The notes beneath the pieces were generated by a model, which saw only the letters and a program-made list of their open reading frames with translations, was not told the origin of the DNA and did no database searches. A DNA stretch of 64,000 nt, taken from Bacteroidota bacterium (GTDB lineage: Bacteria; Bacteroidota; Bacteroidia; AKYH767-A; 2013-40CM-41-45). Both the position numbers and the translations under genes were made by a program. The stretch covers positions 86,630 to 150,629 of the forward strand of contig PLYJ01000220.1 of the NCBI GenBank assembly GCA_003151745.1, read 5' to 3'. Of this stretch, positions 14,597-64,000 are shown piece after piece (within the stretch, counting starts at the first letter, position 1; each line of letters begins with the position of its first letter).

Positions 14597-14669
14597 GACT
14601 TTGTGTTTTGTATAACAAACTATTAGATAAGTTTTCTCGAAAAGCCTACCTTTGCGGAATAAAATATTT

Positions 14670-14737
14670 GGTTTCGTAGTTCAATGGATACCCGCCCGAC
14701 TGAAAGACGTCAGTCGTTCGGGCGGGGAATAGAAGTT
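14670..14737 (+). pseudogene. Displaced 5' half of tRNA-Arg(CCU), nt 1-32, interrupted by a 36-nt hairpin in the D-loop
   Basis: ggtttcgtagttcaatggata + [36-nt insert] + gaatagaagtt is identical to nt 1-32 of the intact tRNA at 15006. The upstream flank cctacctttgcggaataaaatattt matches the flank of the 37178 copy. Confidence 0.8.
14691..14726. repeat. 36-nt GC-rich palindromic insert
   Basis: The sequence is cccgcccgactgaaagacgtcagtcgttcgggcggg, with outer arms cccgcccg/cgggcggg. It is the exact reverse complement of 37232-37267. Confidence 0.9.
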
Positions 14738-14745
14738 ACTGTATC

Positions 14746-15003
14746 ATGGAAGATAAACATTTCGTATATGTTCTTTGGAGCAAAGAATTCAGCAGAAAAT
14801 ATGTTGGTATGACTGAAGATACAGAGAATAGGTTGAAAGAACATAATTCTGGCAAGACAGTTTCCACTAAAGCATTTATTCCTTGGAAAATAATTTACAC
14901 AGAAAATTTTGAAACAAGAGCCCAAGCAAGAGTAAGAGAAAAGTATTTTAAAACTGCGGCAGGAAGAAAATTCTTAAAAGAAAAATTATCTTTACAAAAT
15001 TAA
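14746..15003 (+). CDS. GIY-YIG nuclease superfamily protein (small URI-domain, UPF0213-like)
   Basis: 85 aa. The sequence reads FVYVLWSKEFSRKYVGMTEDTENRLKEHNSG…, i.e. GIY-YIG-type (V)YVL…YVG plus the R..EH.. core. Confidence 0.85.
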   Translation: MEDKHFVYVLWSKEFSRKYVGMTEDTENRLKEHNSGKTVSTKAFIPWKIIYTENFETRAQARVREKYFKTAAGRKFLKEKLSLQN

Positions 15004-15005
15004 TT

Positions 15006-15077
15006 GGTTTCGTAGTTCAATGGATAGAATAGAAGTTTCCTAAACTTTTGATCCCAGTTCGATTCTGGGCGAGACCA
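15006..15077 (+). tRNA. tRNA-Arg (anticodon CCT), followed by an encoded CCA
   Basis: Hand-folded cloverleaf. The acceptor ggtttcg/cgagacc has one G·U. The D stem is gttc/gaat and the anticodon stem gaagt/acttt. The anticodon loop is ttCCTaa. The T arm is cccag-ttcgatt-ctggg, with discriminator A then cca. Confidence 0.9.
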
Positions 15078-15345
15078 CCACCTCTAAAACCATTGATATT
15101 AAAGGGCTTTGTTTTTCATCTCCACAGGAACATCGAACTTTTTTTATTGAAAAACAGACACATCCCTTTATATTCGCTATAAGAAGCATTTTATTACAAA
15201 ATAATAAACTGACCAATTTACACCAAAAAATATATTGTCAATTAGAGCCGAATTTGCATACTAAAAGCAGTTTTTTTATCTAATCTTGTAGTTACAATTT
15301 CGTTTTACAAATTTCATTATCTAAAAGAAACATCTTTAAAATCAC

Positions 15346-30541: not shown

Positions 30542-33500
30542 ATGACAAAAAAAATATACAAAAGAATAATAGGAACAGTTCTTTTAAATCTGATTTCAAT
30601 TTTTTCAAATGCGCAAGGTCCGGCAGCATCTTTCAAAACAGATCAAACCATAGGTTCTTCGCCACTTACGATCCAATTTACAAATACATCAGTAAATGCA
30701 TCTTCGTATTATTGGGATTTTGGGAATGGAAATATTTCTGTTTTAACGAATCCTACAAATGTGTATTCCAATACAGGAACTTATATAGTAAAACTCATTG
30801 CCATATCAGCAAATGGTCAAAAGGACTCGGTAATATCAAGCAATTTGATAACAGTTTCAGCGAATGCTATTTCTAATTTTTATGCTGTGAATACGAGTTC
30901 TTGTCTTGATGGAAACAGTTTTTCCTTTGTAAATACAAGTTTAAATTCAACGACTTGCCTTTGGGATTTTGGTGATGGAAATACTTCTACACTTCACAAT
31001 GCAACTCATAGTTATTCATCACAAGGCAATTATACCATCAAACTGATTTCCTATAATAGCTTTGGATACGCAGATTTAAAAATCATGACGAATTACATTC
31101 ATGTGACTCCGAAACCTGCTAATACTTTCACTGTTAATACTACAACCTCCTGTAACTTAAATCAAATTTTTAATTTTACTTCTACTGCTCCTTCTGCCAA
31201 TTCATGGCTTTGGAACTTCGGTGATGGAACTATTTCAACACTTTCAAATCCACAACATTCATATAATAATGCTGGAATATACTCCGTTTCACTGATTACA
31301 AGTAATGGAGGCGGTTGTGTCGACTCACTTATTAAAAATAATTATATTTCAATATCTGATAATCAAATACCTTCATTTACAGCAAGTACAACAAGCGAAT
31401 GTACCCTATTACCAATTTCATTTACAAATACTTCAGATGATACTAAAAGTTGTTTATGGGATTTCGGTGACAGTGGTACTTCTACGCTACAAAATCCTTC
31501 TCATATTTATAAAAATAGCGGCAATTATAATATCAGTTTAACAGTAACTACTAACAGCAATTGTACTTATACAACCACCTTAAAGAATAAAATAAGCATA
31601 CAGAATAATGCTGTTTCAAATTTTTCTTTAAATAACAAAACCGGATGCGCTCCTTTAAATGTTCAATTTACTAATTTGTCGAAAAATGATTCAAGCCGGC
31701 TATGGGAATTTGGTGATGGAACTACTTCAACACTTCAAAACCCATCGCACATTTATACTGAAAATGATAAGTATACAGTTATATTGCATTCATACAGTGC
31801 TTCTGGGTGTTCATCTGTTTATACGCAAACAAATGCGGTTATAATTTCGCCACCTGTTGCTGATTTTAGTGCCAATATTGGGTCGAGCTGTGGCCCAATA
31901 AAAGCTAGTTTCAAAAACTCTTCTACCAATTCGGATCAGTGGTTATGGAATTTTGGTGATAGTACAACTTCTACTCTTAAAAACCCTGTCCATACTTATA
32001 ATTCTGCCGGTGATTATGATGTTACTTTGATTGCTTATGATGTACAAGGTTGTAGTGATACACTAACGCGTAATTCATTTGTTGAAGTAAATAATTCTGT
32101 TGACAATTATGTGCCACCGCCAACAATTACCGGTTGTGTTCCTTTGAATGTTTCATTTGAAAAGGCAACACAAGGTGCTATTTCGTGGCTGTGGGATTTT
32201 GGTGATGGTACTACATCCAAATTAAAAAATCCATCGCACACATTTATTACAAGTGGCTCTTTTACGGTTTCCTTAACAATACAATTGAATAGTGGATGTA
32301 CTCAGGTTTACCCGAAGTTCGAAACATTTGAAGTGCAAGGAGGTTCGGCTGAATTTACATTTACCCGAACAGCATGCTCTCCTTATGTTGTAAATTTCAA
32401 GGATAGTACAAATGCTAAAGCGACTTCTTGGTTTTGGGATTTCGGAGATAATTCCACTTCTATACTTCAAAACCCAACACACACCTATCCTACAACAGAA
32501 TTTTATACTGTTATTCATAAAACTATAACACCTATAGGTTGTAAAAGCGAAATAATTCAAAGCAACTTAATCCATTTTACAGCTTGCGCTCCACCTGCTA
32601 TTTCAAGTACTCCTCCTCCCCCGTTTTTAAAAGGAGGTAGTTCGCCTGTCAATATTATACAGAACGGCGTGATAACTGGTGCTATTCACCCATTAAGTGG
32701 CTGCATCCCTCTATTAGTCAACTTTCACAATATTATACCAAACACAATATCATGGTTTTGGAATTTTGGAGATGGGACGACAAGCACCTTGGAAAATCCT
32801 ATACATAGTTATATTAAGGATGGGAATTTTGATGTAATGATGATTGCGAAAAATGCTATTGGAAAAAGAGATACAATAATTTATTCCAAATACATACACG
32901 CCTCCGGTGTTACAACTAATTTCAGTTTTACTCAAAATAGCAATTGTGTGAATACTACATTGGCATTCACTGATTCATCAAAAAATGCAATCTCGTGGTT
33001 ATGGAATTTTGGTGATGGAGCAACCGACACACTAAAAAACCCGACTCATGTTTATTCAGGTTCAGGGAAAAATTACACGATACAATTAACAACATCTAAT
33101 GCGGATGGATGTTTAGCTTCTATGTCAAGTAATTTTTCTAATGTTCTTGATAATCCTGTTGTAAAGGCAAATAAATATGTGGTGTGTAACAATCAATCTG
33201 TAAATTTTACTTGCTCTTCCTCAAATTCGGGATCTTACCAATGGGATTTCGGTGATGGTACAACTTCAACGCTTAAAAATCCAAGTCATATATACCTGAC
33301 CGATGGTAGTTTTCAGGTTATCTTAAAACTCACTAATAGTAATGGTTGTACTCGTAATTTTTCTTTACCACATCCAATAGTTTCACAGAATCCTATTGCC
33401 GATTTCACATCCATATTAAAAAGCGGATGCAATTCAACAGCTGTGAATTTTTCAAATTTATCCATAGGAAGTGCTCTTCCACTTTCGTCCCATAGCAGAT

Positions 33501-36124
33501 GGGATTTCGGGGATGCATCTCCAACACAATGGATAGAAAATCCAATGCATACTTATACTCAACCGGGAACATATCATGTTAAACTTTTAGTTAATAATGA
33601 TAAAAAATGCATAAATAACACTATGAAAATAGTTAATGTATATCCAACAACTGTTGCTGATTTTTCAAGTTCACAAAATACTACTTGCTTTCCGATCACA
33701 GTAACATATAACGATTCAAGCACTAAAGCTGTTTCTTGGTTATGGGATTTTGGTGATGGCACTACTTCTATTTTACAAAATCCTATTCACATATTTACTG
33801 TATCACCTACATCTGGTGTAAAACTTATAATCACTGATGCTAACGGTTGTCAAGCTAATATAACAAAACCGAACATTTCTATTTTTAACACTGATTTTTC
33901 CATATCTAAAACAAAAGGTTGTGCTCCAATGAATGTAACCTTTTCCGACCTATCTATAAATGCGAGTGAGTGGCTGTGGAATTTTGGTGATGGAACTATT
34001 TCAACAATCCAAAACCCAAGTCATATTTACTTGAACGAAGGAATTTATCCGATAATTTTAATCTCTAAAACCGTCACCGGCTGTTTGGATACAATGACCT
34101 TTAATTCTCTCAATCTAAACAAGCCGACGGCAAATTTTATATCTAAAAATCCAACGAACTGTTCACCCACAGTTGTTTCATTCACAGATCTGTCAACAGA
34201 AGCTACTTCGTGGCTATGGGATTTTGGAGATGGTAGCTCTTCTGTAAATCAACACCCGGCACATATTTATAATATCCCCGGATTATATACTATAAAATTA
34301 ATTGTCAAAAATAGCGAAGGTTGCACCGATACTTTAACCCGTATTGATTATATTAAAGTACCGGGGACTATAGCTAATTTCGGTACTTCAGCACAACAAT
34401 TTTGCGCACAATCAGTCATTCAATTTACTGATTCTTCCATCAATGCATCAAGTTGGAATTGGAATTTTGGAGATGGTAATTCATCTTCACTACAACACCC
34501 CGCTAACCACTATCAAAATCCGGGACAATATTCCGTTTCACTTATTGTGCGTGATTCATTCGGATGTACATCAAGTTTCACTTTAGCAAATCCTATTATA
34601 GTAAATCCTTTGCCTACTTCAAATTTCACCATTTCAGATACAGTATTTTGTTCACCTTTTTCTGTGTCTTTTTACAATCATTCACAAAATAGTTTCACTT
34701 ATTTATGGGATTTCGGAGATGGCGATACTTCAACTTTATATAATCCTTCCCATACATATTTGAACTCAGGAACATACACTGCTTCTTTGATTGCTACAAA
34801 TGAATTTGGATGTTCCGACACGAGCAGATATCATTCTATTACTGCAAACAAGGTTCCTGTTATTGATTTTACAGCAAATGTAACAGAAGGATGTTCCGAA
34901 ATGAGTATTTCTTTTATTGATGCATCCAGTTCTATTTCCAATGGAAATTATTTTTGGGACTTCGGTAATGGTAAAACCTCAATAAAACAGAACGATAGTA
35001 CTACATTCATTAATCCTGGTAATTACACTGTTTCTTTAATAGTTTCAGATAATAAGGGATGTAGAGATACAGCTATAAAATCTTCATTTATAGAAATCGC
35101 TGATTTTAATCCTCCGGCTGAATCAAACATATTGTGTGCTACAGTAATATCGGATAACACTACCTATCTGATATGGGAACCCAGCAATGCAAGCGATTTT
35201 GCATATTATAAAATTTACAGAAAAGATATTCTGACAGGAGATTATTTTTCTATCGGAATAATAAATGATATTTCTATTGTGAGCATTTCTGATACGAATT
35301 TGAATACACTGGCTAATTCATATTGCTATAAGGTTCGAACTTTCGACAAGTGTGGTTATGCGCTTCCTTTAGATAGTTTGCTGGAGCATTGTACTATCAA
35401 TATAACTGCCAAGGGCGTGAATGATCATATTAAAGTAAGTTGGACTCCATATGTTGGGGCAAGTCTGGGAACTTATTCAATTTATCGAATGGAAACAGCT
35501 GAAGCCACTCCTGAATTGATCGCCATAGTTCCTTCTAATGTTTTAACCGTTATAGATACTACAATGTATTGTCCCACTGATTTTTCATATCGCATTAAAG
35601 CAAATAAACTTAATGGAAATTTTATTTGTTCGAACAGTGATACTTCTATTGCAAAACCGGTTTTTAATATTTTGTCTCAACAAAAAGTTGAAATTGTAAG
35701 ATCGACAGTAATTAACAATAGTGGGATTTTAACAGAATGGAACACACCAGCTATTGCGCCCAAAGCGGTTACAGAATATAGCATTTACAGATCAACTGAT
35801 AATATAAATTTTTCTTTTTTAACAACTGTTACTTCTTTGGTACATGAATATATCGACAATGATGTAGATGTAAATGCAAAAAATTATTACTATAAAATTG
35901 AAGCAAAAAACTCATGTGGTATTGTCACTTTGGGCAGCAATAAAAGCTCATCTATACTTTTAAAGGCGGAGTTAATCAATGGTGATGTTATGTTAAATTG
36001 GACAAAATATGAAGAGTGGAATACCGGTGTGGATCATTTTATAATTGAAAAAATGAACGAACAAGAAGAATGGAAAATTGTTAAAACCGTTGATGGAAAC
36101 CAATTGATTTCCGAAGTTGAATAA
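30542..36124 (+). CDS. Giant secreted PKD-repeat protein (18 PKD units) with Fn3-like C-terminal repeats and no sorting domain at its end
   Basis: Has a signal peptide. I counted 18 occurrences of the W(D/N/E)FG(D/N)G…S.L.NP.H.Y core. The C-terminal repeats read YYKIYRK…YCYKVRTFDKCG. The ORF stops inside the last such repeat. Confidence 0.9.
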   Translation: MTKKIYKRIIGTVLLNLISIFSNAQGPAASFKTDQTIGSSPLTIQFTNTSVNASSYYWDFGNGNISVLTNPTNVYSNTGTYIVKLIAISANGQKDSVISSNLITVSANAISNFYAVNTSSCLDGNSFSFVNTSLNSTTCLWDFGDGNTSTLHNATHSYSSQGNYTIKLISYNSFGYADLKIMTNYIHVTPKPANTFTVNTTTSCNLNQIFNFTSTAPSANSWLWNFGDGTISTLSNPQHSYNNAGIYSVSLITSNGGGCVDSLIKNNYISISDNQIPSFTASTTSECTLLPISFTNTSDDTKSCLWDFGDSGTSTLQNPSHIYKNSGNYNISLTVTTNSNCTYTTTLKNKISIQNNAVSNFSLNNKTGCAPLNVQFTNLSKNDSSRLWEFGDGTTSTLQNPSHIYTENDKYTVILHSYSASGCSSVYTQTNAVIISPPVADFSANIGSSCGPIKASFKNSSTNSDQWLWNFGDSTTSTLKNPVHTYNSAGDYDVTLIAYDVQGCSDTLTRNSFVEVNNSVDNYVPPPTITGCVPLNVSFEKATQGAISWLWDFGDGTTSKLKNPSHTFITSGSFTVSLTIQLNSGCTQVYPKFETFEVQGGSAEFTFTRTACSPYVVNFKDSTNAKATSWFWDFGDNSTSILQNPTHTYPTTEFYTVIHKTITPIGCKSEIIQSNLIHFTACAPPAISSTPPPPFLKGGSSPVNIIQNGVITGAIHPLSGCIPLLVNFHNIIPNTISWFWNFGDGTTSTLENPIHSYIKDGNFDVMMIAKNAIGKRDTIIYSKYIHASGVTTNFSFTQNSNCVNTTLAFTDSSKNAISWLWNFGDGATDTLKNPTHVYSGSGKNYTIQLTTSNADGCLASMSSNFSNVLDNPVVKANKYVVCNNQSVNFTCSSSNSGSYQWDFGDGTTSTLKNPSHIYLTDGSFQVILKLTNSNGCTRNFSLPHPIVSQNPIADFTSILKSGCNSTAVNFSNLSIGSALPLSSHSRWDFGDASPTQWIENPMHTYTQPGTYHVKLLVNNDKKCINNTMKIVNVYPTTVADFSSSQNTTCFPITVTYNDSSTKAVSWLWDFGDGTTSILQNPIHIFTVSPTSGVKLIITDANGCQANITKPNISIFNTDFSISKTKGCAPMNVTFSDLSINASEWLWNFGDGTISTIQNPSHIYLNEGIYPIILISKTVTGCLDTMTFNSLNLNKPTANFISKNPTNCSPTVVSFTDLSTEATSWLWDFGDGSSSVNQHPAHIYNIPGLYTIKLIVKNSEGCTDTLTRIDYIKVPGTIANFGTSAQQFCAQSVIQFTDSSINASSWNWNFGDGNSSSLQHPANHYQNPGQYSVSLIVRDSFGCTSSFTLANPIIVNPLPTSNFTISDTVFCSPFSVSFYNHSQNSFTYLWDFGDGDTSTLYNPSHTYLNSGTYTASLIATNEFGCSDTSRYHSITANKVPVIDFTANVTEGCSEMSISFIDASSSISNGNYFWDFGNGKTSIKQNDSTTFINPGNYTVSLIVSDNKGCRDTAIKSSFIEIADFNPPAESNILCATVISDNTTYLIWEPSNASDFAYYKIYRKDILTGDYFSIGIINDISIVSISDTNLNTLANSYCYKVRTFDKCGYALPLDSLLEHCTINITAKGVNDHIKVSWTPYVGASLGTYSIYRMETAEATPELIAIVPSNVLTVIDTTMYCPTDFSYRIKANKLNGNFICSNSDTSIAKPVFNILSQQKVEIVRSTVINNSGILTEWNTPAIAPKAVTEYSIYRSTDNINFSFLTTVTSLVHEYIDNDVDVNAKNYYYKIEAKNSCGIVTLGSNKSSSILLKAELINGDVMLNWTKYEEWNTGVDHFIIEKMNEQEEWKIVKTVDGNQLISEVE

Positions 36125-36289: not shown

Positions 36290-37150
36290 ATGACCAACGC
36301 CATCGCCCACGAATACATTGAAGTAAATGGCATTAAACTGCACATTGCCAAACAAGGTACCGGAGAAAAATTAGTTGTTCTCCTTCATGGTTGGCCCGAA
36401 TTCTGGTATACCTGGCGATTGCAGATCCCTGTGTTGGCTGAAAAATATACTGTGGTTGCACCCGATCTAAGAGGATTTAATTTAAGTGATAAACCAAAAG
36501 GGATCAAAAATTATAAATTGGATGTTGTAGCAAGTGATATTGCTGAACTCATTCCAAAATTAGGTTTTAAAAAAGCCTACATTGTTGGTCATGATTTTGG
36601 TGGCGCCACGGCTTGGGCGTTTGCTGCCTTGTATCCCGAACTAACAGAAAAACTTGTTATATTAAACTGTCCGCATCCTAAAGAAATGTTCATTGGTATG
36701 AAAACCCTGAAACAAATGCGGAAGAGTTGGTACATTTTTATGCACCAAATACCTTTCTTACCAGAATTATTGTACAAACTATCGTTGCCCTGGTTTTTCA
36801 AAACATTTTTAAGAGGATGGATGTACAACAAAAAGAATTTTACCGATGAAGACCTAAATGCCTTTGTTACCGCCTATAAACAAAAAGGCGCGATGACAGG
36901 CTCTTTAAATTATTACAGGGCAATGATTCAATGTAAACCAAATAAAAATGTATTCAGGAATAAAATTAAGGCTCCTACGCTATTGTTGTGGGGAGAAGGT
37001 GATAAAGCGCTCGGGAAGGAATTAAGCTATAATACCGGAAAATATATTGATGCATCGTATGAAGTGAAATACATTCCTAAGTGTTCACATTGGATACAAA
37101 ACGATTGTCCGAAAGAAGTGAATGAATATTTGTTAGGTTTTCTTGATTAA
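36290..37150 (+). CDS. Alpha/beta hydrolase, epoxide-hydrolase/haloalkane-dehalogenase-like
   Basis: Has the HGWPEFWYTWR oxyanion motif (HGxP), the GHDFGG motif (Asp nucleophile) and a C-terminal CSHWIQ (His). Confidence 0.88.
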   Translation: MTNAIAHEYIEVNGIKLHIAKQGTGEKLVVLLHGWPEFWYTWRLQIPVLAEKYTVVAPDLRGFNLSDKPKGIKNYKLDVVASDIAELIPKLGFKKAYIVGHDFGGATAWAFAALYPELTEKLVILNCPHPKEMFIGMKTLKQMRKSWYIFMHQIPFLPELLYKLSLPWFFKTFLRGWMYNKKNFTDEDLNAFVTAYKQKGAMTGSLNYYRAMIQCKPNKNVFRNKIKAPTLLLWGEGDKALGKELSYNTGKYIDASYEVKYIPKCSHWIQNDCPKEVNEYLLGFLD

Positions 37151-37177
37151 ACCTACCTTTGCAGAATAATAATATTT

Positions 37178-37319
37178 GGTTTCGTAGTTCAACGCCCGCC
37201 CGAACGTACCTTTTCGATACGGGCGGGGATACCCGCCCGAACGACTGACGTCTTTCAGTCGGGCGGGGAATATGAAGTTTCCTAAACTTTTGATCCCAGT
37301 TCATTTCTGGGCGAGACCA
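37178..37319 (+). pseudogene. Decayed second copy of tRNA-Arg(CCU) with two 36-nt GC-rich hairpin inserts in the D-loop
   Basis: The structure is ggtttcgtagttcaa[37193-37228]ata[37232-37267]gaatatgaagtttCCTaaacttt…cccagttcatttctgggcgagacca. There is a 1-nt insertion before the anticodon stem. The T-loop is ttcattt instead of ttcgatt, and there is no CCA. The upstream flank is shared with 14645-14669. Confidence 0.8.
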
Positions 37320-37700
37320 CTTTTAAACCTAAATAGCTTGATCCTATTGATGTTTGGAAACAAAATTTATCATTTACAATCTTGTTTTTGCTCTTCTTAC
37401 AACTCAAATAATAATCAAACGTGTCATCATTATACACTCGCAAGATCCACCAACATCTGCCGGACTTTAAATAACTAACCATTACCAAATTATCATCAAT
37501 AGGGTCTTTCATAGAAATAGTTTTTGTTTTATATATCTATGGAAAATAACAGAAAGAATTGTTTGAATTGTATAAAAGATTGTCAATCGACCACTCCTAT
37601 TGTGCTTTAGGAGTGTTTTCGTGTATTGGAAGTGTAGTATTTGAGTTGAAAATAAATGAAACTCCTGATTGCACCTGAATGGATTTAATAATAAAAACTA

Positions 37701-40031
37701 CTATCTGAGCAGTTGTACAAATCCTTTTTTTACATTGTTTGTTCCCTTTGAATTTTTATATTCCACTATCCAATAATAAACACCGCTTACACATTGCAGC
37801 CCACTTGTTGTATTTCCTTCCCAGCCTTCATTTACTTTTGTTAGTTCACCAACTAAAATGCCCCAACGGTTAAATATTTTACAATTAAGTTCTATTATAT
37901 TTTTTGTCGTAATTGTAAATACATCATTTAAACCATCATTGTTTGGAGTAAATACATTCGGCGCTTCAACTTCTATTTCACAATCGGAAAGAGAAACAGA
38001 AAGAGAGTCTCTGGCTAAGCATTGTTCGTTGTTTGCTTTCATCCAATAAATTCCGGCAGCATTCACATTGATTGAAGAAGTTGTGGAGCCGTTTGACCAG
38101 AGGTATCTAGTAGCAACTCCCCCGCTTAAAGTAACAGTTTGTCCTTCGCAAATTATTACGTCATTGCCGAGATTTATTTTCGGAGTTTGAATAACGGTAA
38201 TATTTATGGAATCTTTATTGGAGCATTGTTGGGAATTATCCTGAACCCAAAAATTCCCTGAATTCAAAACAGTGATCACAGAAGTTGTTGATCCGTTTGA
38301 CCATAGATAAGATAAAGCACCTGTTCCGGTAAGTGTAACCGAAGTGCCGGAACACACAGTTGTGGCTGATGCTATTAAACCTATTGTTGTTACTACTAAA
38401 GGAATTACTGTAATTGTCGTTGTATCTCGGTTAGAACAATTGTTTCCATCTGTGCCTGTTACCGTATAGGTTTTAGTAGAAGCAGGAACAAAACCTACTC
38501 CATCCGTTACTCCATTTGTCCATGAATAAGTAGTTTGGTTACTGAGCGGAGTCGAAGTGCCAGTGAGCGTAGCCGAACCGCCGGCACACACAGTTGTAAC
38601 ACTTGAGTTAGCAGTAACGATTGGTAAGTTATTTACCTTGATATTTATTGTGTCTGTATTAGAACAATTATTTCCATCTGTTCCCATAACGGTGTAAGTT
38701 TTAGTAGATGAAGGAACAAAACTAACTCCACTCATTACTCCGTCTGTCCATGAATAGGAATTTGCACCACTACCAGTTAGCGTAACTGAACTGCCCTTAC
38801 ATAATGTGGTTGCGCTTGCGTTAGCAGTAATAGTAAGTGTATTAACCTTAACAGACACTGTTGCTCTGCTTGAACTTCCGGTGGAGTTACTATCTTCAAC
38901 ATAATAAGTTGCGTCATTTGTTAAAATAGGCGTTGTAAAATTTGAACCCCCACCCAAGTAAGAGTAGATGCCGCTTTGTGTACCTTTGTACCAACTGAGT
39001 GTGCCTGTTCCTGTTGCTGATAAACTTGCAGTATGATTTGAGCATATAGTATCATTTGCAGCTATTGGAGGAGGTGGCGTAGTACCTGAAGATGCTAAGG
39101 GACCCCAATGTAAAGCATATAAATTGCCTGTATTGTCATCATACTTTGTTTCTACAAGATTATAAGGATTAACAAATACAGGTAAAAACGGATTTGAAAC
39201 AATATGTCCGTTTGTAGCATCAATAGTACATAAATGACTGTTACTACTACTATCACTTAGTTCACAAGTATATTGTTTGTTAATTTCATCAAATGTATAG
39301 TACCCTCCTCCAAAATATAAAGCGTAAAAATTATTGATTGAATTAATGATAGTTCGATTACCTGTTGCAATATTAACAGAAACAAATTGAACACCGCCAT
39401 TGAAACCCAACAATGCATAAAGATTACCAGAAGTATTATCGTACTGAAATCCTAAAATATTATTGCCTATGGAGGAGTGCTTTGAAATAATCTTTCCAGT
39501 TACCATGTCTAAGTTGAATAGGCATATACTTCCAACACTATCAACAGCAGAGAAAATATACCTGTGATTAATATCATCAGATGTTACAGAATAACTCGTT
39601 GAAGTTATATTTAAATGACTTATAATCGTAAAAGCAGCAGTAGTCGGGTTTATTGATACGAAATCTGCACCTGCCGTTGAAATTGAACTACCATAATGTA
39701 TTCCATATAAAATACCTGTAGAATTGTCGAATTTTAGACCTCCGAAATTACCAGTAATTTGTGGAATAGAAACAGTGCTTCCGGTTGTTGCATTAATACT
39801 ACATAAATAATAATTAGTCTTACTACTATCTAGACCAACAAAAATATATCTTCTGTTTTTTTTATCAAAAGTAGATGTTACGGTTTCAATCCATTTAACA
39901 ATTGGAATACTGTCGAGTATAGTATAACTGCAAGTTGCAGGGTTTACCTGAACAAAATATTCTTCTTGTGCAAAAAGAATATTATTTGCAAAAAGGAGAG
40001 AAGCCAATATTTTTACACTCTTCTTTTTCAT
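37701..40031 (-). CDS. T9SS type B cargo adhesin with a beta-propeller-like N-terminal region and Ig-like repeats
   Basis: The signal peptide MKKKSVKILASLLFANNILFAQ follows the ATG at 40031; the track start at 40079 is a TTG. The Ig-like repeats read …TTVC.G.S.TLTG…YSWT.GV… The C-terminal CHU_C domain reads NVFTPNNDGLNDVF…FNRWGILV…GVYYWIVEY…GFVQLLR. Confidence 0.85.
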   Translation of the reverse strand: MKKKSVKILASLLFANNILFAQEEYFVQVNPATCSYTILDSIPIVKWIETVTSTFDKKNRRYIFVGLDSSKTNYYLCSINATTGSTVSIPQITGNFGGLKFDNSTGILYGIHYGSSISTAGADFVSINPTTAAFTIISHLNITSTSYSVTSDDINHRYIFSAVDSVGSICLFNLDMVTGKIISKHSSIGNNILGFQYDNTSGNLYALLGFNGGVQFVSVNIATGNRTIINSINNFYALYFGGGYYTFDEINKQYTCELSDSSSNSHLCTIDATNGHIVSNPFLPVFVNPYNLVETKYDDNTGNLYALHWGPLASSGTTPPPPIAANDTICSNHTASLSATGTGTLSWYKGTQSGIYSYLGGGSNFTTPILTNDATYYVEDSNSTGSSSRATVSVKVNTLTITANASATTLCKGSSVTLTGSGANSYSWTDGVMSGVSFVPSSTKTYTVMGTDGNNCSNTDTINIKVNNLPIVTANSSVTTVCAGGSATLTGTSTPLSNQTTYSWTNGVTDGVGFVPASTKTYTVTGTDGNNCSNRDTTTITVIPLVVTTIGLIASATTVCSGTSVTLTGTGALSYLWSNGSTTSVITVLNSGNFWVQDNSQQCSNKDSINITVIQTPKINLGNDVIICEGQTVTLSGGVATRYLWSNGSTTSSINVNAAGIYWMKANNEQCLARDSLSVSLSDCEIEVEAPNVFTPNNDGLNDVFTITTKNIIELNCKIFNRWGILVGELTKVNEGWEGNTTSGLQCVSGVYYWIVEYKNSKGTNNVKKGFVQLLR

Positions 40032-40175
40032 TGGTGTTGTCATTTTCGAACTGTTTTCGCTACTACAAATGTAAATCAAATGCGATGGACTTTATTGCAA
40101 AAATTTATACCGATGAAACATAAAATAAACCTTTTCCAAAGTTTTTAACTTTGAAAACGGTAAAAAGCAGAAAAC

Positions 40176-62247: not shown

Positions 62248-64000
62248 ATGAAAAAAATTAGTGTATTAAATAATCGGGAATTAAGTTGGCTATCCTTCAA
62301 TGAACGGGTTTTGCAGGAAGCAGAAGATAAAACTGTCCCCTTAATTGAACGTATAAAATTTCTAGGAATTTTTTCTAATAATCGCGATGAATTTTTTCGT
62401 GTACGCGTTGCCGCATTAAAGCGTGCAGTAAAATATCCTAAAAAAGCGGAAGGAATAATCGGAGAAAATCCTGAACTGCTTTTAAATAAAATTCAGAAAG
62501 TTGTTATTGAGCAGCAAATAAAGTTTGAAAATGTTTATCAAAATATTCTTAAAGAATTAGGGCGCAATAATATTTTTATAATAAACGAAAAGCATATTTC
62601 CATTCAGCAAAGCGTATTTATTAAAAAGTTTTTTCGGGAAAATATAATGCCATCGCTTTTCCCAATAATGCTCGACAACTCCTCTCAATTTCCCTATTTG
62701 AAAGATCGATCAGGCTATCTGATTGTAAAGTTGGGAAGTAATATCAAAACGAAAAAAAATAAATATTCAATAATAGAAGTACCAACCGATAATATCTCCC
62801 GTTTTGTAGTATTGCCTAAAGAAAAAGATAAAAATTTTGTTATTCTTTTGGATGATGTAATTCGTTTTTGCTTAGAAGATGTATTTAATAATTTCGGACA
62901 TGATTACATCGAGGCATATAATATTAAATTAACCAGAGATGCCGAGATTGATATAGATAATGATCTGTCAAAGAGTTTTGTTGAAAAAATATCAAGAGGT
63001 TTAAAAGCCAGAAAAAAGGGTCAGCCGGTGCGATTGGTTTACGATAGCGAAATTGCGCCTGATATGCTGGCTTTAATTATGAAAAAAATTAAACTACGCA
63101 AAGGTGATAATCTTATCCCGGGCGGGCGCTATCATAATTTTAAAGATTTTATTTCCTTCCCGAATATTGGTGGCACCAATTTAAAATATCCACCAACACC
63201 GGCTCTTAAGCATCCCGAACTACCCACTTCTCAGTCGAGGCCGAAAGATCAGCCAAGTTTTTTTAAAATTTTAAAACAAAAAGATGTACTGCTCACTTTT
63301 CCATACCAATCGTTTGATCATATCATCGACCTGTTACGTGAAGCTTCTATTGACCCAAAAGTACAGAGCATATATATTACATTGTATCGCGTTGCAAAAA
63401 ACTCCAATGTTGTTCTAGCACTTATTAACGCTCTTAAAAATGGCAAACAGGTAATAGCAGTAATTGAACTGCAAGCGCGATTTGATGAAGAAGCCAATAT
63501 ATACTGGGCAAACAAACTGCAGGAAGAGGGAGCGAAAGTAATTTATGGTGTACCCGGATTAAAAGTGCATTCAAAATTATTTTTGATATCACGCAAAGAG
63601 AGCGGGAAAATTTTTAATTACGGGTATCTCGGTACCGGAAATTTTAATGGAGATACTGCACGTGTTTATACCGACCACAGTTTGCTTACAGCAGATAAAC
63701 GAATTACTGATGAGATCGTAAAAGTGTTTACCTTTTATTTAGATAATTTAAAATCGGGCACCTTTAAACATTTATTAGTGTCTCCTTTTTTTATGCGTAA
63801 ACGTATCATACAGCTCATCGATACAGAAATAAAGAATGCTATCAATAATAAACCTGCTTCTATTTTTTTAAAATTGAATAACCTGGTCGATACGCAAATG
63901 ATCAATAAATTTTACGAGGCAAGTGCTGCAGGTGTAAAAATTAAATTGATCGTTCGAGGAATGTGCTCATTGGTTGCAGGAGTTAAAGGCGTAAGTGAGA
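62248..64000 (+). CDS. ppk1: Polyphosphate kinase 1 (3' end beyond the window)
   Basis: Not in the ORF track because it has no stop in the window. My manual translation gives MKKISVLNNRELSWLSFNERVLQEAEDKTVPLIERIKFLGIFSNNRDEFFRVRVAALKR… and …GGRYHNFKDF…LTFPYQSFDHIIDLLREASIDPKVQSIYITLYRV…IELQARFDEEANIYWANKLQEEGAKVIYGVPGLKVHSK…. Confidence 0.9.
   Translation, partial: MKKISVLNNRELSWLSFNERVLQEAEDKTVPLIERIKFLGIFSNNRDEFFRVRVAALKRAVKYPKKAEGIIGENPELLLNKIQKVVIEQQIKFENVYQNILKELGRNNIFIINEKHISIQQSVFIKKFFRENIMPSLFPIMLDNSSQFPYLKDRSGYLIVKLGSNIKTKKNKYSIIEVPTDNISRFVVLPKEKDKNFVILLDDVIRFCLEDVFNNFGHDYIEAYNIKLTRDAEIDIDNDLSKSFVEKISRGLKARKKGQPVRLVYDSEIAPDMLALIMKKIKLRKGDNLIPGGRYHNFKDFISFPNIGGTNLKYPPTPALKHPELPTSQSRPKDQPSFFKILKQKDVLLTFPYQSFDHIIDLLREASIDPKVQSIYITLYRVAKNSNVVLALINALKNGKQVIAVIELQARFDEEANIYWANKLQEEGAKVIYGVPGLKVHSKLFLISRKESGKIFNYGYLGTGNFNGDTARVYTDHSLLTADKRITDEIVKVFTFYLDNLKSGTFKHLLVSPFFMRKRIIQLIDTEIKNAINNKPASIFLKLNNLVDTQMINKFYEASAAGVKIKLIVRGMCSLVAGVKGVSE

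Follow-up and report, generated by a model that had tools for sequence, protein, structure and literature searches.

Possible traces of a tRNA-targeting GIY-YIG cassette: GC-rich hairpins in two tRNA-Arg(CCU) copies of a Bacteroidota genome

Why should the same 36-nt GC-rich palindrome interrupt two copies of one tRNA gene at the same D-loop site, in opposite orientations? The question is raised by a 64,000-nt stretch of a Bacteroidota bacterium (GenBank assembly GCA_003151745.1, contig PLYJ01000220.1, positions 86,630 to 150,629), referred to here as the window. One interrupted copy of tRNA-Arg(CCU) lies beside a small open reading frame (ORF) for a predicted GIY-YIG nuclease (locus A, 14645-15080), and the other stands elsewhere (locus B, 37152-37320). 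This study suggests that a selfish, tRNA-targeting GIY-YIG cassette left behind two dead copies of tRNA-Arg(CCU), that mobile palindromic mini-elements disable the redundant tRNA copy of such a cassette, and that the hairpins of the window mark the dead copies; the probability of this reading is put at roughly 0.6. It draws, among other findings, on a recurrent architecture in many genomes and on hairpin insertions that fall precisely, without target duplication, at loops and junctions of tRNA copies.

The interrupted tRNA copies of the window

Locus A is a complete cassette, consisting of a 5' tRNA fragment with a hairpin, the GIY-YIG gene and an intact tRNA. Locus B is a full-length, decayed tRNA copy with two hairpins and no adjoining ORF. 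The features of locus A are as follows:

14645-14669, plus strand: upstream segment of 25 nt, a promoter-like leader of the tRNA copy, common to locus B
14670-14690, plus strand: redundant tRNA-Arg(CCU) 5' fragment, nucleotides 1-21, 100% identical to the intact tRNA
14691-14726, plus strand, with the bulge strand on minus: 36-nt GC-rich hairpin insert of type T2, a clean insertion after tRNA nucleotide 21
14727-14737, plus strand: redundant tRNA fragment, nucleotides 22-32, 100% identical to the intact tRNA
14746-15003, plus strand: gene of the 85-aa GIY-YIG nuclease, catalytic domain alone (Pfam PF01541)
15006-15080, plus strand: the sole intact tRNA-Arg(CCU) gene (ARAGORN; Rfam RF00005, 63.3 bits)

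Those of locus B are:

37152-37177, plus strand: upstream segment homologous to 14645-14669, by alignment
37178-37194, plus strand: pseudo-tRNA-Arg(CCU) nucleotides 1-17, with T16 changed to C
37195-37227, plus strand: 33-nt hairpin insert, degenerate T1, between two D-loop G residues, after nucleotide 17
37228-37231, plus strand: tRNA nucleotides 18-21 (gata), separating the two hairpins
37232-37267, plus strand, with the bulge strand on plus: 36-nt hairpin insert of type T2, reverse complement of 14691-14726
37268-37320, plus strand: what remains of the pseudo-tRNA (nucleotides 22-73), in which one T is added, the T loop reads ttcattt and CCA is absent

The 36-mer at 37232-37267 (CCCGCCCGAACGACTGACGTCTTTCAGTCGGGCGGG) equals the reverse complement of 14691-14726 at 36 of 36 positions, and both copies lie between ...ggata and gaata... 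of tRNA-Arg(CCU). A search of the window for CCCGCCCG-N10-30-CGGGCGGG returned exactly three matches (14691-14726, 37195-37227 and 37232-37267), and the same search returned none across 100 dinucleotide-preserving shuffles of the window, whose G+C content is about 34%. One further exact CCCGCCCG 8-mer, at 63119-63126, lies in coding sequence without a partner arm. Insertions after nucleotide 17 or 18, like that of the 33-nt hairpin, are also present at other loci. Tandem duplication was rejected as the source of the two locus B hairpins because their types differ (T1-like and T2). An assembly artefact is ruled out by the identical locus sequence in two independent assemblies (ENA ERZ28653421 and JGI 3300037222), together with the same hairpins in isolate genomes.

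These results bear on an earlier description made from the letters of the window alone (the original prediction). It was correct in calling the two 36-mers exact reverse complements, in placing both at the same D-loop site, and in confining the GC-rich motif to tRNA-copy sites of an AT-rich window. Its second hairpin near 37178 does exist, although it was placed at 37193-37228 with a 3-nt gap, whereas 37195-37227 and 4 nt were measured. Its account of the tRNA-Arg copies was less complete. The sequence at 14670 had been taken for a whole tRNA copy; it comprises only nucleotides 1-21, the hairpin and nucleotides 22-32, where tRNA homology stops in the anticodon loop. The single intact tRNA-Arg(CCT) at 15006-15080, behind the GIY-YIG ORF, had been overlooked; ARAGORN at default settings and Rfam find no other tRNA in the window. 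The ORF begins 8 bases past the end of the tRNA fragment, and its stop codon lies 2 nt upstream of the intact tRNA.

The decay that had been claimed for the 37178 tRNA was borne out in full. An extra T follows gaata, the T loop reads ttcattt instead of ttcgatt so that the conserved T-loop A is lost, and CCA is missing. The 3' part of locus B is 95.7% identical to nucleotides 27-73 of the intact tRNA (47 nt). With both hairpins deleted, locus B is called by ARAGORN as tRNA-Arg(CCT); with the hairpins in place, it is called neither by ARAGORN at default settings nor by Rfam. Upstream, an alignment of 14645-14669 plus the initial 15 nt of the tRNA with locus B agrees at 39 of 41 positions, and weak promoter-like matches are found at 14637-14665 (sigma-70-like, ending 4 nt before the tRNA start) and at 37143-37170.

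The module, its nuclease and its hairpins in other genomes

The layout of locus A, that is, a partial tRNA copy with a hairpin, a GIY-YIG gene and an intact tRNA, recurs in Bacteroidota, Patescibacteria and other phyla. For an unbiased sample, homologues were chosen by protein similarity alone in a metagenome scan, and the best 80 loci of more than 531 relatives, containing 85 ORFs, were analyzed. An intact tRNA abuts 66 of the 85 homologues. It lies downstream of 56 ORFs, starting -4 to +116 nt from the ORF end and mostly within 15 nt, and upstream of 11, ending 7-106 nt before the ORF start. The adjoining tRNAs are mostly tRNA-Arg, with all five anticodons represented, and also include those for Gln, Ala, Val, Leu, Asn and Ser. 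Nearly every GIY-YIG/tRNA cassette has a hairpin in its redundant tRNA copy, and in both arrangements the ORF separates this hairpin from the intact tRNA. Among the nearby GC-rich hairpins, 63 of 65 are clean insertions, without target duplication, in a second copy of the adjacent tRNA. They are located at the following positions:

after tRNA nucleotide 21-23: 36 cases
after tRNA nucleotide 9-12: 14 cases
after tRNA nucleotide 54-57: 9 cases
after nucleotide 67-68 of tRNA-Leu (T loop): 2 cases
after tRNA nucleotide 17: 1 case
after tRNA nucleotide 32: 1 case

Motif-free chaining of tRNA fragments gave the same picture and added further hairpin families. Some spare tRNA copies are full length and others no more than short stubs, which would fit the gradual erosion of an initially whole duplicate. 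At some loci, two or more units of tRNA fragment with hairpin and GIY-YIG gene stand in tandem upstream of a single intact tRNA (L033:3180-3740, L144, L149, L162, L169, L195 and L177:1350-2120). Four further homologues, picked without regard to the hairpin, all adjoin a tRNA, and three of them have a hairpin. A Muricauda locus (L124) has the module layout at tRNA-Arg(ACG). In Flavobacterium sp. SUN052 (L125), the order is intact tRNA, GIY-YIG gene and a full-length copy with CCTGCCTGCCGGCAGGCAGG at the D loop; at a Salibacteraceae locus (L126), the ORF follows tRNA-Phe and the hairpin is absent. Complete genomes with the module include those of Flavobacterium sp. SUN052, Muricauda sp. CAU 1633, Zeaxanthinibacter enoshimensis DSM 18435 and Lacibacter CP051137.

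The hairpin was also sought directly, with the pattern CCCGCCCGAACG-N8-24-CGGGCGGG, in one genome per species (185,579 species), which yielded at least 120 loci. When all ORFs within 2.5 kb were clustered, GIY-YIG was the sole enriched protein family near hairpins. When the hairpins were deleted in silico, an intact tRNA appeared at none of 130 genome-locus sites; 18 of the 130 are clean insertions, with neither duplication nor deletion, into a partial tRNA copy, mostly with an intact paralogue at the same locus. Close GIY-YIG relatives share a hairpin family in 16 of 16 pairs, and each tRNA type carries several families. The link between nuclease and hairpin, which the original prediction had offered as speculation, is thus statistically strong, as the family is the only one enriched and a hairpin is found in nearly every cassette. 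Its tiny palindromic element landing at defined places of tRNA genes likewise agrees with the recurrence of the same D-loop junction in many tRNAs and of both orientations elsewhere. The genome-wide pattern search that it called for did find an association with tRNA copies and GIY-YIG genes, but most hairpin copies lie outside tRNAs, some of them in-frame within genes.

The 85-aa protein of locus A matches the GIY-YIG domain PF01541 over residues 4-73 (E = 2.8e-14; 53.6 bits against a cut-off of 22.6). Residues Y8, Y19, G21, R29, H33 and E65 are invariant among 18 diverse homologues, and include the catalytic Tyr of GIY, the Tyr of YIG, and the Arg, His and Glu. The ratio of nonsynonymous to synonymous substitution rates (Ka/Ks) in the family is about 0.15, indicating that the protein is maintained under purifying selection. 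The family has 892 clusters at 50% identity (E <= 1e-10) in Bacteroidota, Patescibacteria and other phyla. No PHROGs match was found for the protein, and NCBIfam gave nothing. A defence system was considered and set aside, since PADLOC gave only marginal matches to GIY-YIG domains. The closest sequences are UPF0213/YhbQ/YazA/Slx1-type URI proteins, and the nearest solved structures are the UPF0213 proteins 1ywl (E = 2e-7) and 1zg2 (E = 1e-5). Slx1, whose family takes in YhbQ and YazA, is a structure-selective nuclease (PMC7017083). Such selectivity would be in keeping with a hairpin or cloverleaf DNA substrate. The known proteins of this type differ from the present one in that no tie to tRNA duplicates or hairpins is reported in the literature searched.

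In comparisons of L135 with L140 or L151, the synonymous divergence (Ks) of the ORF is 0.20-0.23, against 1.2-1.9 for the syntenic flanking genes. This indicates that the cassette is far younger than the genes around it and moves horizontally. In a relative whose S9 peptidase shows 80% identity, tRNA-Arg(CCU) is plain and is accompanied by neither a fragment nor a hairpin nor the ORF. In a relative at L232:4770-6414, tRNA-Arg(CCU) ends after about 44 nt and is followed by a tyrosine-integrase gene; this is evidently a classical integrative island with the same tRNA as its attachment site, and it looks quite different from the GIY-YIG cassette.

GC-rich bulged hairpins of 20-40 nt form a family that spans phyla, and both the 36-mer and the adjacent 33-mer are members; they are interpreted as small selfish palindromic inserts. 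The short palindrome occurs at many unrelated sites in many taxa. Matches were mostly in low-GC Bacteroidota and Patescibacteria, with some chance matches in high-GC genomes. Among the matches listed, the Bacteroidota included Flavobacteriaceae, Chitinophagaceae, Saprospiraceae and Bacteroidales, and the other taxa included Bdellovibrionales, Scalindua and one gammaproteobacterial metagenome-assembled genome (MAG). The interior of the hairpin, which the search pattern leaves unconstrained, is strikingly conserved, and three types were distinguished:

T1, 32 nt: consensus CCCGCCCGAACGTACCGTTCGGTACGGGCGGG
T2, 36 nt: consensus CCCGCCCGAACGACTGAnnTCGTTCAGTCGGGCGGG
T3, 29 nt: consensus CCCGCCCGAACGACGTTCAGTCGGGCGGG

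For T2, 22 distinct sequences support a fold in which an outer stem of 8 bp is followed by a bulge of 4 nt (AACG), an inner stem of 5 bp and a loop of 6 nt. Since the search pattern itself dictates the bulge and the outer stem, evidence of the fold comes from the inner stem only. Four of its five pairs vary on both sides, and the observed covariation score was matched by none of 500 shuffles, indicating that the hairpin is selected as a fold. An alternative register, in which CGAACG would pair with CGTTCG, is not maintained by covariation. Folded as DNA, the hairpins reach -11 to -13 kcal/mol, and 14691-14726 reaches -12.9 kcal/mol (z-score -4.2). They are not intrinsic terminators, as they have no T tract, and they match no known RNA family in Rfam at the gathering score or at E <= 1. 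A phage vehicle was also rejected, as only about 2-5 genuine hairpins were present among 19 viral matches, the remainder being GC-rich chance matches.

Other hairpins were found at the same tRNA positions. A second family, a 20-nt perfect palindrome (CCTGCCTGCCGGCAGGCAGG), occurs at tRNA positions 9, 22 and in the T loop beside GIY-YIG genes (L125:3277-3296, L135, L137, L140 and many other metagenome loci). Further families include the 28-nt CCTGCCCGACTGAAGTCATTCAGGCGGG, and CCCGCCTCGACGAGC... at tRNA-Gln. Compared with L135, L136:1440-1470 has two substitutions in the 20-nt palindrome (CCTGTCTGCCGACAGGCAGG) that restore a perfect 6-bp hairpin in a shifted register, which hints at selection for pairing in this family too. 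At several Bacteroidota loci, hairpins stand within tandem 7-8-nt repeats (ccgtatca..., aaatcta...) or in a recurring gtggactg|hairpin|ccgact (L058:6200-6520, L118:340-630, L100, L102, L012, L087 and L070), which suggests that the hairpin there is part of larger composite repeats.

Some hairpins, 30, 33 or 36 nt long, interrupt essential or conserved protein genes of Patescibacteria and Bacteroidota without breaking the reading frame. The genes encode SecA, Dus (twice), a RecG-like helicase, a PheS-like protein, PolA, a LysS-like protein, a PIF1/RecD-like protein and an aldehyde dehydrogenase (L071:2495-2917, from a Saccharibacteria MAG, L004, L007, L086, L097, L106, L111, L117 and L119). The hairpins add peptides such as PARPDESGRSGG; in SecA of one MAG, comparison with all solved SecA structures shows an insert of exactly 12 residues. 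Among 46 hairpins whose length keeps the frame, 13 lie in long ORFs, compared with 1 of 62 with frameshift length that would restore an ORF if removed. Since only in-frame lengths occur within genes, these hairpins are evidently translated and not spliced, and the RNA keeps the hairpin; the hairpin-bearing tRNAs are therefore argued to be dead.

The variants and their orientations complete the description of the window hairpins. Both 36-mers are T2 hairpins with a private G-to-T change (GTCTTT, compared with GTCGTT in the family consensus), and because this variant is common to both, they evidently share an origin within this genome. Among asymmetric hairpins, 24 are forward and 29 reverse relative to the tRNA copy; orientation is about even, with no preference. 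The opposite orientation of the window pair could be due either to orientation-neutral insertion or to a flip of the asymmetric core between 9-bp inverted arms, and the even orientation across unrelated loci is compatible with both. A flip would mean that one ancestral insertion was duplicated with the tRNA and that its 18-nt asymmetric core then turned over when recombination or template switching took place between the arms; in chloroplast DNA, such core flips are the origin of small inversions flanked by hairpins. The private variant in both copies and the flanks that are homologous from 25 nt upstream favor such an event. In addition, one of several tandem copies at L177 has an inverted core within the same asymmetric arms (CCTGCCCG...CGGGCGGG), which hints at flipping in place. 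However, the hairpins are identical at every position while the aligned flanks differ at about 1 position in 10, suggesting a younger event. Turnover or re-insertion also occurs: L123, the remaining one of the four further homologues, which lies beside an S9 peptidase gene as locus A does and has the same layout at tRNA-Arg(CCU), contains a T1 hairpin at the identical ggata|gaata. On balance, a flip is given slightly less than even odds.

The proposed cassette and competing explanations

In the favored reading, a bare nuclease ORF would be set tightly against a tRNA gene, and on its arrival the target tRNA would come to be present twice, once on each side of the ORF. The first copy, represented by 15006-15080, would stay intact and functional; the ORF has no space for signals of its own and is presumed to be co-transcribed with it. 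The other copy would be redundant; it would erode, with hairpins interrupting it in the T loop and after nucleotides 9-10, 17-18 and 21-22. The nuclease may break naive tRNA genes, with repair templated on tRNA homology copying the cassette in, and it probably also assists the insertion or spread of the hairpins. Both orientations and the in-frame translated copies suggest that the hairpins act at the DNA level, where they may break the direct repeat, or the nuclease site, in the spare copy. Deletion of the cassette by recombination downstream of the hairpin would then tend to yield a hairpin-disrupted, dead tRNA. Locus B has the structure expected after such a recombination removed the ORF, a loss that would be tolerable because locus A supplies the tRNA.

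A more specific version is tentative and is considered less likely than not. Here, a structure-selective minimal GIY-YIG nuclease would cut at cloverleaf loop junctions and home via tRNA homology arms, and the bulged hairpins would be non-autonomous passengers, pasted at the same cuts and elsewhere (including in-frame in essential Patescibacteria genes), that act as locks. If it holds, homology arms made only of tRNA would let this hitherto unrecognized, selfish two-part system cross phylum boundaries, and the hairpin locks would make loss of the cassette cost the cell its tRNA.

Several points weigh against the cassette proposed here. The protein is a predicted nuclease without a DNA-binding domain, and the cutting of tRNA genes and handling of hairpins are putative activities. 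An intact tRNA copy should stay a target of a tRNA-specific nuclease. About 85% of the pattern-found hairpins are not near a GIY-YIG gene or a tRNA, and hairpin mobility may be independent of the nuclease. The insertions lack target duplication, whereas characterized GIY-YIG homing enzymes make staggered cuts. The anti-deletion role is deduced by logic only, and the tRNA duplication could date either from the insertion itself or from recombination with a circular intermediate. Finally, a single cassette-free relative was found, and its synteny with the window is partial, which leaves the boundaries of the cassette approximate.

A first alternative dispenses with any functional tie to the GIY-YIG gene: autonomous selfish palindromes with preferred loop-like targets, akin to Rickettsia palindromic elements or yeast mitochondrial GC clusters, would simply be retained in neutral, redundant tRNA copies, insertions in working tRNAs being lethal and hence never observed. 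The many pattern matches away from GIY-YIG genes and tRNAs would be expected on this account, as would the in-frame copies in SecA, Dus, the RecG-like gene and PolA, the presence of several unrelated hairpin families at the same sites, and the piling up of multiple hairpins in one dead copy. It leaves unexplained why nearly every redundant tRNA copy has a hairpin, why about 130 nt of tRNA-copy sequence contains all three hairpins of the 64-kb window and the other intergenic DNA none, why GIY-YIG is the sole enriched neighbor, and why close GIY-YIG relatives share their hairpin family in every pair. Passive accumulation of this kind is given about one chance in four. Protection of RNA ends is a weaker candidate. 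A hairpin kept as a stem-loop would shield the free end of the GIY-YIG messenger (the 5' end if the fragment is upstream, the 3' end if it is downstream), with the tRNA capping the other end, much as repetitive extragenic palindromic (REP) sequences stabilize upstream mRNA. The position of the hairpin opposite the intact tRNA in both arrangements, the compensatory changes that keep the pairing, the formation of a stem-loop in either orientation and the promoter-like sequence just upstream of both tRNA copies are all in line with this idea. It does not account for the precise tRNA loop positions, multiple hairpins per copy, ORF-less copies such as locus B, or gene-borne copies; moreover, the asymmetric AACG bulge would differ in RNA according to orientation, and the hairpins are not terminator-like. 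It is accordingly considered unlikely.

The remaining proposal, that the hairpins are small tRNA introns removed from RNA and that the hairpin-bearing copies are working tRNA genes, finds some encouragement in locus B, which becomes recognizable as tRNA-Arg(CCU) once both hairpins are deleted. By contrast, all 130 genome-locus sites are outside otherwise intact tRNAs, and the hosts are mostly truncated fragments; locus B itself lacks the conserved T-loop A and CCA and has an extra nucleotide; both orientations occur; only 30, 33 or 36 nt are tolerated within genes, which implies that the hairpin stays in the RNA; and Rfam gives no match. An RNA intron, either a bacterial group I intron or an archaeal bulge-helix-bulge intron, was rejected on these grounds, and this proposal is regarded as very improbable.

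Relation to known elements

The module appears to combine three known behaviors: that of a GIY-YIG homing gene, that of a target-restoring tRNA duplication and that of in-frame selfish palindromes. SegB of phage T4 is a free-standing GIY-YIG homing endonuclease gene in a tRNA gene cluster (PMC2330249). SegB and I-TevI resemble the present system in that a GIY-YIG gene is lodged at a conserved target, with a tRNA-gene association, and spreads horizontally to the same site in diverged genomes, as the Ks values of ORF and flanks suggest here. The module has a defined, conserved target in many genomes (66/85, and 4/4 further homologues). The differences are equally clear. Seg and Tev enzymes have a DNA-binding domain, while the 85-aa protein is the catalytic domain alone, with no sequence-specific DNA-binding module of the kind that would steer a homing enzyme to the empty allele. 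The target gene of the module is duplicated and not merely flanked, nearly every spare copy has a GC-rich hairpin, and the hosts are cellular genomes of several phyla, not phages. The occupied allele of a homing gene should be immune through disruption of its target, and on this point the observations are mixed: the spare copy is hairpin-disrupted, but an intact tRNA persists beside the ORF.

Integrase-borne islands duplicate part of a tRNA gene at their ends and so restore their target (PMC9897764). The partial duplication is shared with the present cassette, but here the insert is only about 250 nt, the 85-aa GIY-YIG ORF is all that lies between the tRNA copies, and no tyrosine or serine recombinase is present. 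Furthermore, the duplicated part is usually the 5' half, and hairpins interrupt the partial copy.

Rickettsia palindromic elements and yeast mitochondrial GC clusters are short selfish palindromes. Compared by description, both resemble the present hairpins in their in-frame, translated insertion into protein genes, and the yeast clusters also in being GC-rich islands of AT-rich genomes. At 20-40 nt, the present hairpins are much shorter than the Rickettsia elements. Their hosts differ too, and they are near-identical across phyla, have precise hot spots in tRNA loops and are systematically coupled to a nuclease gene. Imperfect palindromes tied to a dedicated enzyme gene are also the hallmark of REP sequences and their associated transposases (RAYT), a pairing that the original prediction had brought in for comparison. 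This comparison was not upheld: neither an HUH/Y1 transposase nor any other transposase was enriched in the ORF clustering, the GT[AG]G tetranucleotide is absent (the ends are CCCGCCCG...CGGGCGGG, with no conserved tetranucleotide in the flanks), and the hairpins occur inside tRNA copies and genes, not only in intergenic DNA. At L101:101-868, about 670 nt separate a hairpin from an IS200/RAYT-like ORF (motif YCLMPNHFHLL); such ORFs were seen at only two loci and are probably incidental.

No description of the module was found in the literature searched or in Rfam, which is absence of evidence only; the hairpin family is apparently undescribed, and there is a fair chance that the coupling of nuclease and hairpin is categorically new. 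The module may represent a new class of mobile element that is both very small and widespread, made up of an ORF of about 250 nt and a hairpin of 20-40 nt. It would account for many of the tRNA gene fragments and pseudo-tRNAs that confuse annotation and, in reduced genomes, for odd 10-12-residue inserts such as PARPDESGRSGG in essential proteins. How short palindromic elements move has been a standing question ever since the discovery of the Rickettsia elements and the yeast GC clusters, and a candidate enzyme beside the hairpins would make this question directly testable. A nuclease of about 85 aa acting on defined DNA structures, as its predicted activity suggests, could also be useful in the laboratory.

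Locus B is located between an alpha/beta-hydrolase gene (36290-37150) and a minus-strand gene for a 792-aa cell-surface protein with repeats and a gliding-type C-terminal domain (37701-40079). Surface proteins of this kind are typical of Bacteroidota and have no evident tie to the hairpins; another, a 1860-aa repeat protein, is encoded just upstream of locus B (30542-36124).

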